The translations under genes and the position numbers were made by a program. From IMG/VR virus record IMGVR_UViG_3300031788_000002, positions 64,001 through 128,000 of that record: a DNA stretch of 64,000 nucleotides. One strand, given 5' to 3'. Numbering within the stretch: the first letter of the stretch is position 1; every line of letters begins with the position of its first letter. The notes beneath the pieces were generated by a model. It worked only from the letters and a program-made list of their open reading frames with translations. It made no database searches and was not told where the DNA came from. Positions 10,683-14,496 of the stretch are shown in pieces. This stretch comes from a virus.

Positions 10683-12278
10683 ATGTTTTCGTTTCCTGGC
10701 GCTGCAGCTCCGACCTTCGCGGATCCCAATACGCAAGCGGTGCACACCAATGCGTCTGTGAGCGCCAGCGGGTCCGTTGTTCTTTCAGGTTACGGAGCGG
10801 GTTCGCTCGAGCTCATCGTCAACATCACCGCGTCGCCCACGGGAACGCTACCGACGCTCCAGTACACCGTCACCGAGGTGGACCCGGTAACGCTGACCGC
10901 AACCGTTGGGGCCGCGCATTCTTCCAATGTGTTCAGCGCCATCGGGATTCAAGTGTTGACCATTCCCACGCAAAGTGGCGCGGTGAAAGTAGCGTGGACG
11001 ATAGGAGGTACGGGCTCTCCCACGTTCACGGGGGTGAACGCGTCGGTAAGTGCGAAGGCCGACGTTGCGGTGGGTGCGGTAGGCGCTGCAGCACCGTTAA
11101 CGGCCGTGCAGGTCGCGGGCTCCGATGGAACTAATCTGCGCGCGCTTGCCACCAATACGTCAGGGCAGCTGGTTGTCGCCCCCTTAACTACCACAGATAA
11201 AAGTGGTTCCGGGACGCTAGGGGCCCTGAACGCTACGCTCACCGTTCCACTCAACGGATGCACTACGTTGACGTGCAGCACAACCGGTACGTGGAACGGT
11301 ACGGTAGAGGTTTTTGGGCAAGCTGGGGATGGACAGTGGGTTGGGCCCTTGCCCATTTTATTTGCCTATTCTTTTCAAAACTATTCCCTCAATCAAGGGT
11401 TTAACTTTGCAAGCAACATCGTCGGCAGCGTTAACGTCGGTGGCTATACCCAAATACAGCTTCAAATGACGGCGTATACGTCGGGTACAGTTACCATTAC
11501 GTGGAATGCTTCCGTTGCACCTGGGACTACAGGTGCTGTTGCTCTACTACCGGATCAAGCAATTGCAATTGCGGGGGGTCTGACTGCATACGGGCAAACC
11601 TTTTACAATAACCCCATTTGTATCGGCGGCGTTGACGGGGGTGGGTTATTGCGCTCCGCATTAACGGACACGTCGGGGCGCCTAGTTGTTACACAAACAA
11701 CGGCTACGAATCTTAAAGCACAAGTCGTTGGCCCGAACACGCTCGCGGATGCAACCGCCAACGCAGCAACTGCAGTACCCGCCCAGGCGTTTATTTCGGG
11801 GTACAATGGCACAACGTGGGACCGCACGCGTTCAGCTGGAAATGCAGCGGATGCTTTGGCCACGGTGGCATTGGGTGTCATCTACGTTAATGCGTTCAAC
11901 ATGGGGTACAACGGCACAACGTGGGACAGATTGAAGTCCAGTACCGCTAACGGTCTTCAAGTCGATGTAACGCGTGTGCAGGGGACGGTTTCAACAAAGC
12001 CAACGACCGCATCGACCCCGGCCGTCACACAAGTAGCTGGCAGTGCATCGAACGTGGTGCTCAAAGTTGCCAACGCCAATCGGTTAGGTTTACTCATCTA
12101 CAACGACAGCACAGCCATCCTCTATGCAAAGCTGGGGACGACTGCGTCGAGCACCAGCTATTCGGTGCAGCTTGCACCCCAAACTTCTTTTTCAATCCCC
12201 TTTGGATATACGGGAGAGGTCGATGGTATCTGGGCATCGGCTGCGGGAAACGCGTACGTTACAGAGTTGACTGCGTAA
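10683..12278 (+). CDS. Fibre/structural protein, 531 aa
   Basis: AGGAG RBS; internal repeats GYNGTTWDR (twice) and G.DG..LR...T.TSG.LVV (twice). Confidence 0.55.
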   Translation: MFSFPGAAAPTFADPNTQAVHTNASVSASGSVVLSGYGAGSLELIVNITASPTGTLPTLQYTVTEVDPVTLTATVGAAHSSNVFSAIGIQVLTIPTQSGAVKVAWTIGGTGSPTFTGVNASVSAKADVAVGAVGAAAPLTAVQVAGSDGTNLRALATNTSGQLVVAPLTTTDKSGSGTLGALNATLTVPLNGCTTLTCSTTGTWNGTVEVFGQAGDGQWVGPLPILFAYSFQNYSLNQGFNFASNIVGSVNVGGYTQIQLQMTAYTSGTVTITWNASVAPGTTGAVALLPDQAIAIAGGLTAYGQTFYNNPICIGGVDGGGLLRSALTDTSGRLVVTQTTATNLKAQVVGPNTLADATANAATAVPAQAFISGYNGTTWDRTRSAGNAADALATVALGVIYVNAFNMGYNGTTWDRLKSSTANGLQVDVTRVQGTVSTKPTTASTPAVTQVAGSASNVVLKVANANRLGLLIYNDSTAILYAKLGTTASSTSYSVQLAPQTSFSIPFGYTGEVDGIWASAAGNAYVTELTA

Positions 12279-12287
12279 GGAGACCGC

Positions 12288-12626
12288 ATGACTTCGCAAA
12301 CGTTAACCGCCGTCATTGCTTCGTGGACCCCCGTCAATGTGAATGCCGGTACGTATACTTGTCAGTACTTCGTGCAGGATCAACCAACAACAGCCGCATC
12401 CACCATGTTCTGGTATCGGGGTATGGTCCAAGCACAGGCTCTGCCGGCAGCGCCCGCGACCGCTGCTATCACACCGGTTACGCTCACGGGTTTGACGCAG
12501 GCGGCCCTTCTACAAAGCTTGCAAGCCGATGTAGCTAACCTCGTCGTCGCTTTGACAGCAAAGTACCCGACGGTTATTACGGTTCCAATCGGCTATGCAA
12601 CGCCGGTCATCGTGAATATTCCGTGA
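12288..12626 (+). CDS. Hypothetical protein, 112 aa
   Basis: AAGGAG RBS; operon packing. Confidence 0.55.
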   Translation: MTSQTLTAVIASWTPVNVNAGTYTCQYFVQDQPTTAASTMFWYRGMVQAQALPAAPATAAITPVTLTGLTQAALLQSLQADVANLVVALTAKYPTVITVPIGYATPVIVNIP

Positions 12627-12627
12627 T

Positions 12628-13161
12628 ATGAGCTACTTGATCGCTGATGCGCAGGATGTCGTTCCTCTCAGCCTCGTGGTGGAGCGCGAGGGCGTGGGGG
12701 GTATCGCGGGGTTATCCCCCACGGTAGCTCTGCGCCTCGGGGAAGATCCAACACAATACTTGGACTGGTCCCTCATGGCCTTCAAAGCCAGCGGATGGGT
12801 AACGAAGTACAAGACCATGACGGGGGTTGAGCGCGGGCACTACTACACGCTTCTCAGCTTGCCGACGTTGGGGGCTGTAGCCGGGGCGTCTTACGTGGCA
12901 CAGTTCAACGTGAACAATGGCGCCGATGTTCAAGGGGAGGCCGAGGACGTTCTTTTAGTGACCTCGGTCGCTACGGATGTTGCGTTGCTTCGAAAGGCGC
13001 TGACCAACCGAATGGAAGAATCTCCGGGCAACCCAGGGCAGCTCACCCTGTTTGACGATGACGGCTTCACCGTTTTGGCGCGGTGGCAGCTTACGGACAC
13101 GACCGGGGGGGCGGTGGTCAGCAGTTTGGGGACGCCGGCGCGTCGGAGCGCGCGCGTGTAA
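12628..13161 (+). CDS. Hypothetical virion protein, 177 aa
   Basis: Operon packing; C-terminal LTLFDDDGFTVL resembles ends of phage structural proteins. Confidence 0.5.
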   Translation: MSYLIADAQDVVPLSLVVEREGVGGIAGLSPTVALRLGEDPTQYLDWSLMAFKASGWVTKYKTMTGVERGHYYTLLSLPTLGAVAGASYVAQFNVNNGADVQGEAEDVLLVTSVATDVALLRKALTNRMEESPGNPGQLTLFDDDGFTVLARWQLTDTTGGAVVSSLGTPARRSARV

Positions 13162-13373
13162 TGCGCAGCGGCTTTCTTGCGTTGACGGGCGTTCCTTTCG
13201 GAACGCTTACGATCACCCGGGGCCTCGGGGGTTTCGGCACAGGGTTGGTGGAGCCGGTTGTAGAGGAGGGCGCGGAGCTTCCACGTCCGGCCCCGCGAGC
13301 GGTGCCCGAGAACAAGAAGGCGCCCACGGCGCTTGTTTACCAACCGATGGCTAAGAAAAAGAGGGGGCGCTAA
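13161..13373 (+). CDS. Hypothetical protein, 70 aa (MRSGFLALTG...)
   Basis: ATG at 13161 overlaps the upstream TAA. Confidence 0.45.
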   Translation: MRSGFLALTGVPFGTLTITRGLGGFGTGLVEPVVEEGAELPRPAPRAVPENKKAPTALVYQPMAKKKRGR

Positions 13374-13381
13374 GCGCCCCT
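13353..13381 (-). terminator. Intrinsic terminator at the end of the leftward replication operon
   Basis: Stem GGGGCGC/GCGCCCC (13364-13380) followed on the minus strand by CTCTTTTTCTT; lies between convergent operons. Confidence 0.65.
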
Positions 13382-13384
13382 GTA

Positions 13385-13573
13385 TCAGTCGAGCTCCGCC
13401 CCTTGCAAACGGCGCAGGGGGGAGTCCGGCGCCCCGAAAACTTCGAGGCCCGCCAGCGCTACGATGTCCCGCAAAGACGCTTCGGGCGCCGTCGGGTCAA
13501 CGTCGATAAGATCCTCAGGCCGAGGAAGAACACAGCCCGGCCAGAGGTTCGCGCTGGCCGCTAGGCTTTTCCC
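13385..13573 (-). other. Programmed -1 ribosomal frameshift site with 60-aa extension frame
   Basis: In-frame G GGA AAA (13573-13567) just before GCC TAG; 6-nt spacer; CGGCCAG/CTGGCCG hairpin (13560-13538); the -1 frame is open to TGA at 13387-13385. Confidence 0.7.
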
Positions 13574-14496
13574 ATGAGCGACGCCAAGAGATCTGCCGAG
13601 AGCTGCTCGTCGTAGCCCTGGCGGAGGTGCGCCTTGTAGTATTCCAGCAGTTGCGTGTGATCCATGTTCAGCGCGCGCTCGGTGAGCATCATCAGCATCA
13701 TCAACTGGACGTTCGTGAGCTTGACGCCGCCAGTTACACGCTTGTTGAGCTCGGTCACGCTGGCGGACAGCTGTTCCTGCACCAAGGTCAGCCGCTGGAT
13801 GGTCTCGGCAATTTGGAGAAGCGTGACGTTCGTCTCCCGAGCGTTGGTTCCTTGCGGCTGTTGCATGGCGGGCTGTTGAGGAAAGGGGATCGGTTGCTGC
13901 ATGGGTTGCTGCGGCACGAGTTGCGGGTTCGTCGACATACCAGGTCCCGGCATCGTCGGCATCCCGAAAGACGTCGGGGAGTTCATCGGCATCGTCGGCA
14001 TCCCGAAGGACGGCGGCGCGTTCATCGTGTTTGGCATCTGGGTAGGGATTTGTCCCGGCATCGACTGCGGTTGCGAAGGCATTTGACCGGGCGCACCCAT
14101 GTGCGGGGGGAGCATGTGCGCGGGGATCACGACAGGGACTTGCGGCCCGGGCATCTGCGGGTTGAAGCCCCCCGGTTGCTGTTGTTGCTGTGGAAAGCCG
14201 CCTTGCACCGGCTGTTGCTGGAAGGGCAGTTGCTGCGGGTTGTTCGGCATTTGGGGCGGCATCTGGGGGTTGTTGTTCATGGCAGTTCCTTTTCTCTTGT
14301 CATGCTCGATCAGCGCGTCCGCAACGGTTTGAGCGCGGGCGTCCACGCTGAGGTCATGAAATGCGATCTTTTGTTCTTCCGTGCTGCACAAACCCATCAA
14401 GTGCATGAGCCTGTACAAGCCGGCCAATTGATACTGTGTTTTGAGGGCAGCGACATCGCGGGGGGCGGTATCGATGCTTACAAGGGCGATTCCCAC
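13561..14496 (-). CDS. Q/P/M-rich low-complexity protein with C-terminal coiled coil, about 311 aa
   Basis: Likely GTG start at 14496 (AGGAG RBS, TAGTG overlap with the upstream gene); ends ...LMGKA*. Confidence 0.7.
   Translation of the reverse strand: MGIALVSIDTAPRDVAALKTQYQLAGLYRLMHLMGLCSTEEQKIAFHDLSVDARAQTVADALIEHDKRKGTAMNNNPQMPPQMPNNPQQLPFQQQPVQGGFPQQQQQPGGFNPQMPGPQVPVVIPAHMLPPHMGAPGQMPSQPQSMPGQIPTQMPNTMNAPPSFGMPTMPMNSPTSFGMPTMPGPGMSTNPQLVPQQPMQQPIPFPQQPAMQQPQGTNARETNVTLLQIAETIQRLTLVQEQLSASVTELNKRVTGGVKLTNVQLMMLMMLTERALNMDHTQLLEYYKAHLRQGYDEQLSADLLASLMGKA
13948..14025 (-). repeat. Imperfect 39-nt tandem duplication encoding MN(A/S)P(P/T)SFGMPTMP twice
   Basis: CATCGTCGGCATCCCGAA recurs at 39-nt spacing. 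Confidence 0.7.

Follow-up and report, generated by a model that had tools for sequence, protein, structure and literature searches.

The heptamer G GGA AAA in the last gene of a leftward DNA-metabolism operon of an uncultured 167-kb phage from peat is very probably the site of a genuine programmed -1 ribosomal frameshift, by which the 311-aa product of the gene would be accompanied by a C-terminally extended form. The predicted transframe product has 370 aa, composed of 310 residues read in the 0 frame and 60 residues read in the -1 frame. Comparison of related phages indicates that the -1 reading frame is under purifying selection, with the slippery site conserved, in 12 lineages. The initial annotation of the locus had proposed such a shift, giving a short and an extended isoform of a protein that is not a tail-assembly chaperone, and this core reading is supported by the conservation of the heptamer and of the -1 frame, by the selection acting on the extension and by identical letters in different assemblies. 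We infer the slip itself and its efficiency from the conserved site and the transframe ORF.

The locus and its reading frames

The window, referring to the whole 64,000-nt stretch that was analysed, corresponds to bases 64001-128000 of a 167,481-bp IMG/VR record with a CheckV completeness of 89%. The gene is preceded in the same operon by genes for a UvsX-like recombinase, resolvases, a Cas4-like nuclease, a RusA-like protein and PolA. It is located on the minus strand, opposite to the structural genes, which agrees with the earlier placement of the gene in the replication operon and on the strand opposite the tail genes, and its product matched no chaperone family. The features of the locus are as follows.

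13561..14496, minus strand: 0-frame gene of 311 aa (P0003), from ORF and translation, ending Gly-Lys-Ala-stop
ATG 13575-13573, GGA 13572-13570, AAA 13569-13567, GCC 13566-13564, TAG 13563-13561, minus strand: 0-frame codons at the site
13573-13567, minus strand: slippery heptamer G GGA AAA in the X XXY YYZ register of the 0 frame, from the sequence
13561..13563, minus strand: 0-frame stop TAG, one sense codon past the heptamer, from the sequence
13385..13573, minus strand: -1 frame from the heptamer, translated as Gly-Lys plus 60 residues, with the stop TGA at 13387-13385
13538..13560, minus strand: hairpin A, CGGCCAG 13560-13554, a 9-nt loop and CTGGCCG 13544-13538, separated from the heptamer by the 6-nt spacer GCCTAG
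about 13510..13550, minus strand: hairpin B in the minimum free energy structure, Trp-Pro-Gly codons paired with Leu-Pro-Arg codons, starting about 16-19 nt past the heptamer
13354..13380, minus strand: intrinsic terminator, a 7-bp all-GC stem (13380-13364) with a 3-nt loop and a T-tract, 4 nt past the -1 stop

The letters and the register of the heptamer were confirmed, and the 60 residues ascribed to the -1 frame were reproduced exactly. The lack of a suitable start codon for this frame also stood, since 242 open -1 codons upstream of the heptamer contain no ATG, GTG or TTG, and the only such codon of the frame is an internal TTG, 29 codons before its end. The -1 stretch is left as a 180-nt "gap" in the output of every gene caller. 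As had been described, the -1 stop lies 4 nt before the terminator stem; the terminator is thus positioned behind the -1 stop and not behind the 0-frame stop, and terminator-like hairpins likewise directly follow the -1 stop in two related loci (L007 and L008). The gene start assumed initially, ATG 14280, had to be revised. The most likely start is ATG 14496, which overlaps the stop of the upstream gene, and the extra 72 N-terminal residues that it provides are conserved in homologues.

On the other side of the terminator, a 70-aa ORF (13161-13373, plus strand) directly follows a 177-aa convergent gene; it is called in some assemblies and not in others, and it ends at the shared bidirectional terminator. 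The convergent neighbour in a related phage (L008:4903-5919, minus strand) showed Toxin_R_bind_N and Laminin_G_3 matches and resembles a receptor-binding or tail-fibre protein, while its counterpart in the window has no family match.

No cultured relative and no host of the phage emerged, since blastn of the locus and tblastn of P0003 and of the homologue P0011 against cultured-phage records gave no match, and its PolA gene shares at most 30% identity with any record. The relatives form an uncultured clade of phages of about 60-190 kb from peat, soil and sediment metagenomes. The phage itself recurs in peat metagenomes; DNA runs that contain it come from 13 studies (2019-2024), and six RNA libraries from peat and permafrost contain it as well.

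Gene calls on at least 24 contigs give precisely the 311-aa product, and five loci from different samples and assemblers agree in every letter between a point 60 nt ahead of the heptamer and the terminator, save for one terminator base. Contigs of four RNA libraries showed no inserted or missing letter against the locus at the consensus level; four RNA-library contigs bridge the heptamer and the extension, one of which spans 13232-14077 without any difference, although such contigs may derive from DNA carry-over and can neither prove transcription nor reveal rare slipped transcripts. An assembly indel, which the initial annotation had named as a refuting outcome, is therefore not the source of the two frames, as the same letters were obtained in five independent assemblies, from different samples and years, and in the RNA-library contigs. 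In two runs, RNA-library contigs break off close to the terminator, at about 13351 and 13382, which is a weak hint of its use.

Whether the -1 stretch has the character of coding DNA was assessed with log-odds of codon usage, for which 120 long ORFs of the phage that do not overlap served as the training set. The 60-codon stretch scored 0.252, compared with 0.256 +/- 0.150 for genuine 60-codon windows and -0.47 +/- 0.37 for off-frame windows, of which only 1.6% are at least as high. In its other five frames, the stretch scored from -0.11 to -0.57. Readthrough of the TAG was considered and rejected, as the 0 frame past the stop scores as non-coding (the two other minus frames score -0.57 and -0.53 and contain in-frame stops) and a further 0-frame stop follows about 33 codons on, by hand reading. 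A plus-strand gene in the gap was rejected as well; the plus-strand frames, with TTG-started ORFs of 53 aa and 58 aa, score -0.11 to -0.39 and are situated past the terminator that closes the convergent operon.

A crude criterion, namely an in-frame XXXYYYZ in the last 10 codons together with at least 50 open -1 codons, selects 10 of the 613 ORFs of at least 80 aa in the genome, a set that includes spurious frames, and the pattern in a single genome is therefore not significant by itself. It is the coding signature of the -1 frame together with its conservation across lineages that places the locus beyond chance.

Similar arrangements were seen elsewhere in the phage. Outside the window, two ORFs, G000:C1:160094-160456 (minus strand) and 149464-150810 (plus strand), end with in-frame G GGA AAG or G GGA AAA in the last 10 codons, and their -1 frames are open for 150 and 143 codons past the stop. 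The former, which encodes 120 aa and has the lambda-type heptamer, could be the real tail-assembly-chaperone frameshift. In the window, a 531-aa gene (10683-12278, plus strand) has in-frame G GGA AAC at its end and a -1 frame that stays open for 86 codons beyond the stop; this frame overlaps a called 112-aa gene (12288-12626) and is probably a product of chance in GC-rich DNA.

Conservation of the site and the extension

The C-terminal domain served as the query of an exhaustive HMMER search for homologues, which was complemented by a profile search; both were blind to the shift site. The protein search led to four distant homologues, P0006, P0007, P0010 and P0011, with 26-40% identity. All four have the same architecture, consisting of an N-domain, a Pro/Gln/Met-rich tract and a helical C-domain, and all end in Gly-Lys plus zero or one residue; the P0006 product, seen at the protein level only, ends Gly-Lys-stop and is compatible with the site. 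The homologue contigs, of 42, 61 and 163 kb plus a 4.3-kb fragment, share a common gene order of RecA/UvsX-like, resolvase, Cas4-like nuclease, unknown, RusA, unknown and the gene described here. The DNA of three loci (L007, L008 and L009) was read, and in each of them G GGA AAA, one sense codon and the stop occur with a homologous -1 peptide of 60-68 residues.

More distant relatives were sought with a degenerate DNA pattern derived from the extension only (Trp-Pro-Gly ... Leu-Pro ... acidic), from which the heptamer was excluded to avoid circularity. Of the stretches that matched the pattern, 4 were viral, 16 came from metagenomes and 1 from a bacterial genome. Scans of viral contigs with protein patterns, and a first scan of metagenomes, had given no match. 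Four of the DNA matches, L017, L021, L025 and, from the bacterial-genome scan, L030, were unrelated chance matches that were discarded after reading. The remaining matches and the earlier loci were assembled into 12 non-redundant lineages including the window, which are related to each other, so that counts among them are not fully independent.

Conservation of the heptamer and of the -1 frame in homologues had been named in advance as a check of the frameshift, and both were found. G GGA AAA stands in the 0-frame register in nine of the 12 lineages (the window, L007, L008, L009, the L010 group, L011/L027, L014/L015, L016 and L026), and the other three hold variants that would permit re-pairing. 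The variant of L013, which was found in two different samples, is G AAG AAA at L013:10805-10811, and that of L019 and L022/L028 is G GGG GAA; judged by base pairing, both tRNAs can re-pair on either variant after a -1 move through Watson-Crick or G-U pairs. L022 also contains the letters GGGAAAA, shifted by one base from the required register. Between the site and the 0-frame stop lie 0 codons in two lineages, 1 codon in eight, 3 codons in one and 7 codons in the remaining lineage, L016. The extension was found in the -1 frame in 12/12 lineages, as an open stretch of 50-78 codons without stops. Before the invariant Trp, the extension frame contains no ATG, GTG or TTG in 8/12 lineages, and near-cognate codons are unconserved.

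The codons used at the site are informative in themselves. GGA and AAA are minority codons in the phage, and from its codon usage the probability that a Gly-Lys following a G-ending codon is written G GGA AAA is 0.014; in its long ORFs, 6 of 137 Gly-Lys dipeptides are written in this way. With a probability of 0.014, the occurrence in 9/12 lineages far exceeds what chance would give, even when the common descent of the lineages is taken into account. Because the minority codons GGA and AAA have been kept in nine lineages at saturated synonymous divergence, selection must act on the nucleotides themselves.

The alignment of all 12 extensions (A5) contains an invariant Trp, Pro, Gly, Leu, Pro and Asp and a later invariant Gly. 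The dN/dS values of the extension, calculated by the Nei-Gojobori method, were 0.30 for the window and L007, 0.18 for L008 and L027, 0.20 for L016 and L026, and 0.23 for L010 and L016, with a fifth pair, L009 and L019, at 0.67. In other pairs synonymous sites were saturated, with pN of 0.3-0.47. Between the window and L007, the extension shares 60% identity and the parent protein 40-42%.

Proposed mechanism, candidate stimulators and competing explanations

Ribosomes translating the last gene of the operon would arrive at G GGA AAA, where tRNA-Gly pairs with GGA and tRNA-Lys with AAA, and a fraction of them would slip back by one base, upon which both tRNAs could re-pair perfectly on GGG and AAA. 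The slipped ribosomes would then bypass the stop, which is only one codon away, and append 60 residues, so that the 370-aa form is made beside the 311-aa product. Candidate stimulators of this slip are lineage-specific GC-rich hairpins on the Trp-Pro-Gly codons and/or the nearby 0-frame stop. Against a frameshift count that sites of the type X XXA AAA are less shifty than X XXA AAG in E. coli systems and that three lineages have no canonical heptamer.

The perfect 7-bp hairpin after a 6-nt spacer that the initial annotation had described (hairpin A) is indeed present, with -12.1 kcal/mol when folded alone, but it accounts for only about 4% of the predicted ensemble, its pair probability being about 0.04 over the 60 nt past the heptamer. 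Hairpin B (about 13547-13513), which shares the CTGGCCG arm with hairpin A, has -19.4 kcal/mol and pair probabilities of 0.86-0.96, and it overlaps conserved amino-acid codons, so that the two signals are confounded. A GC-rich hairpin involving the UGGCCNGG (Trp-Pro-Gly) codons is predicted in nearly all lineages, with a pairing partner that varies. The partner is an upstream arm 5-6 nt past the site in L009, L014, L019 and L026, whose hairpins resemble hairpin A and were not seen in the other related lineages, and a downstream arm 14-19 nt past the site, as in hairpin B, in L007, L008 and L027; outside the first four lineages, predicted structures begin either 0-2 or 14-19 nt past the site. 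Compared with a null of codon resampling that keeps the peptide, the stability gave z-scores between -3.5 and +1.4 that averaged about -1.1, values that are suggestive only, as the null uses the codon usage of the window phage and the lineages share ancestry. For the 12 shift regions, RNAalifold returned 0 consensus pairs, and hairpin A is not a conserved stimulator. Shine-Dalgarno-like motifs 10-15 nt upstream of the site occur in a few lineages only. Besides the heptamer, the sole conserved candidate for a stimulator is the close 0-frame stop.

Other origins of the second frame have to be weighed against a ribosomal slip. If the extension were a separate small gene whose translation begins by termination-reinitiation or at a non-canonical start close to the upstream stop, no frameshift would be needed. 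The geometry also fits coupled reinitiation, as conservation sets in 0-3 codons from the 0-frame stop in most lineages, and CTG or ATA is found 6-9 nt past the heptamer start in some lineages and an upstream in-frame GTG in four. Yet no start or near-cognate codon is conserved, and from the upstream stop up to the Trp the window, L013, L008 and L016 are devoid of such codons; a Shine-Dalgarno-like motif is also not consistently placed in the 12-nt upstream strings, which were read by eye. What is conserved at the nucleotide level is instead the heptamer, against codon preference, and L016 retains it 7 codons before the stop, all of which makes a separate gene very unlikely. Slippage of the RNA polymerase, which would drop a base in the GGGAAAA run so that a subset of mRNAs encodes the fusion, could draw on the short homopolymer runs at the site (G3A4, and G5 in two lineages). 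Known cases of productive transcriptional slippage need runs of about 7 or more, whereas the runs here are of 3-5. Moreover, the heptamer keeps its register with the 0 frame across lineages, a constraint that tRNA re-pairing would impose but polymerase slippage would not, and the RNA-library contigs contain no indel at the consensus level. An origin in the transcript is accordingly very unlikely as well.

The arrangement might also be a relic, in which a longer gene has suffered a fixed frameshift mutation and the downstream frame is decaying, or else the outcome of chance or assembly error. The ten ORFs found by the crude criterion show how readily such a pattern arises, and the sampled copies of the phage are near-identical and by themselves provide no evolutionary information. 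Against this stand the 12 diverged lineages, which at saturated synonymous divergence keep two frames and an open extension of 50-78 codons with dN/dS well below 1; the absence of any in-frame fusion lineage among those found points weakly in the same direction. The agreement of independent assemblies from different samples and years speaks against an assembly error, and contaminated copies of one sequence are ruled out by the identities of 26-40%. A relic, chance or an artefact can hardly be credited at all, and a programmed ribosomal frameshift is by far the best account of the locus.

The parent protein, the predicted extension and known recoding systems

P0003 consists of a helical N-domain (about residues 10-74), a Pro/Gln/Met-rich disordered tract (about 75-215) and a helical C-domain (219-308). 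In an AF2 model computed with nine homologues, the N-domain is a four-helix unit with pLDDT of 86-94 and the linker stays below 50; the C-domain was modelled as helices 219-276 (58 residues), 280-292 and 296-308 with pLDDT of 50-68. The description of the protein as low-complexity and Q/P/M-rich thus holds for the central tract but not for the folded N-domain and the long helical C-domain that are predicted to flank it. No relative of the parent protein was found in Pfam, PHROG or the ESM Atlas, and a VIA fold search with the whole-protein model gave generic coiled-coil matches. The N-domain (residues 13-68; 14281-14496, minus strand) superimposed on the Rho N-terminal domain 1a62_A with Z 5.2 and rmsd 2.4 A over 48 residues at 15% identity, which is below the trusted level.

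The extension was modelled with pLDDT of 79 as an extended WPG..LP segment followed by two helices, 31-41 and 52-58. It gave no usable match in Pfam, in a PDB profile search or in Foldseek against the PDB; neither an in-frame fused copy in longer proteins (a weak search) nor a second copy in the phage genome was found. An exhaustive structural alignment listed SAP and LEM-like modules among its best matches, with Z of 2.0-2.9, a range in which small motifs give noise. By its model, the extension, comprising WPG..LP..D and two helices, weakly resembles a small SAP/HeH-like binding module. The likeness to the SAP domain of MANF (6h9u_B), the LEM-like domain of LAP2 (1h9e) and the SAP domain of Ku70 (1jjr) lies in the superposition of residues of about 24-62 of the model on these two-helix (helix-extended-loop-helix) modules of about 40 residues (Z 2.0-2.7, rmsd 2.2-3.1 A, 36-43 residues aligned), whereas these modules have no counterpart of the invariant WPG..LP..D and gave no sequence-profile match. 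The transframe form may carry HeH-like modules at both ends.

Through the frameshift, a set fraction of a coiled-coil protein with a disordered linker might be tethered via the extension to DNA or to a replication or recombination partner. A more specific proposal is a stoichiometry device for the replication/recombination compartment, in which the parent protein would be a self-associating scaffold, the minority form with its SAP/HeH-like anchor would nucleate or tether the assembly on DNA or on a replisome partner, and the slip frequency would fix the ratio of anchor to scaffold; this is a speculative idea to which we assign a low probability.

The frameshift would correct the annotation, as a coding extension fills the 180-nt gap, and would add a new small domain, accessible by recoding alone. 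The natural heptamer variants (G GGA AAA, G AAG AAA and G GGG GAA) provide material for testing slippage rules outside E. coli, and the extension offers a handle on the function of a family of disordered-linker proteins. To our knowledge, a programmed frameshift was not known before in this class of replication-module genes. Frameshifts of tailed phages have been annotated almost only in tail-chaperone genes, on which the prediction tools were trained; in the SEA-PHAGES training set of PRFect, tail assembly chaperones make up 2397 of the 2476 frameshifted genes (PMC10885494).

Compared with E. coli dnaX, the present locus shares replication-associated recoding, two isoforms that differ at the C-terminus and a Lys codon in the A site. 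The dnaX site for tau and gamma is A AAA AAG, with an upstream Shine-Dalgarno-like element and a downstream hairpin, and no conserved stimulators of these kinds were found here. The slip truncates the product in dnaX and would extend it in the phage, and the two genes have no homology. C-terminal extension by frameshifting is known for structural proteins such as T7 gene 10A/10B and the major head protein of Lactobacillus phage A2 (cited in PMC10885494). In these cases too a -1 slip near the 3' end provides a minority of molecules with a short extra domain, but the proteins are capsid proteins, different from the non-structural disordered-linker protein of a DNA-metabolism operon described here.

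The closest parallel is the tail-chaperone shift of tailed phages exemplified by lambda G/GT, whose slippery site is G GGA AAG. The two would share a -1 tandem slip on G GGA AAR near the end of the upstream frame that leads to a C-terminal extension, and in both the two-frame arrangement is conserved despite sequence divergence. The very letters GGGAAAA are reported as the slippery site of the tail assembly chaperone in actinophage Bush (PMC11749239). In contrast to the chaperone genes, the present gene belongs to a different module on the opposite strand, is not flanked by the major tail and tape-measure genes and matched no chaperone in Pfam or PHROG, and its 60-aa module is distinct from the T domain that binds the tape measure. 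The proposed recoding is thus of a known type, the lambda G/GT mechanism, and is carried by a new protein family.
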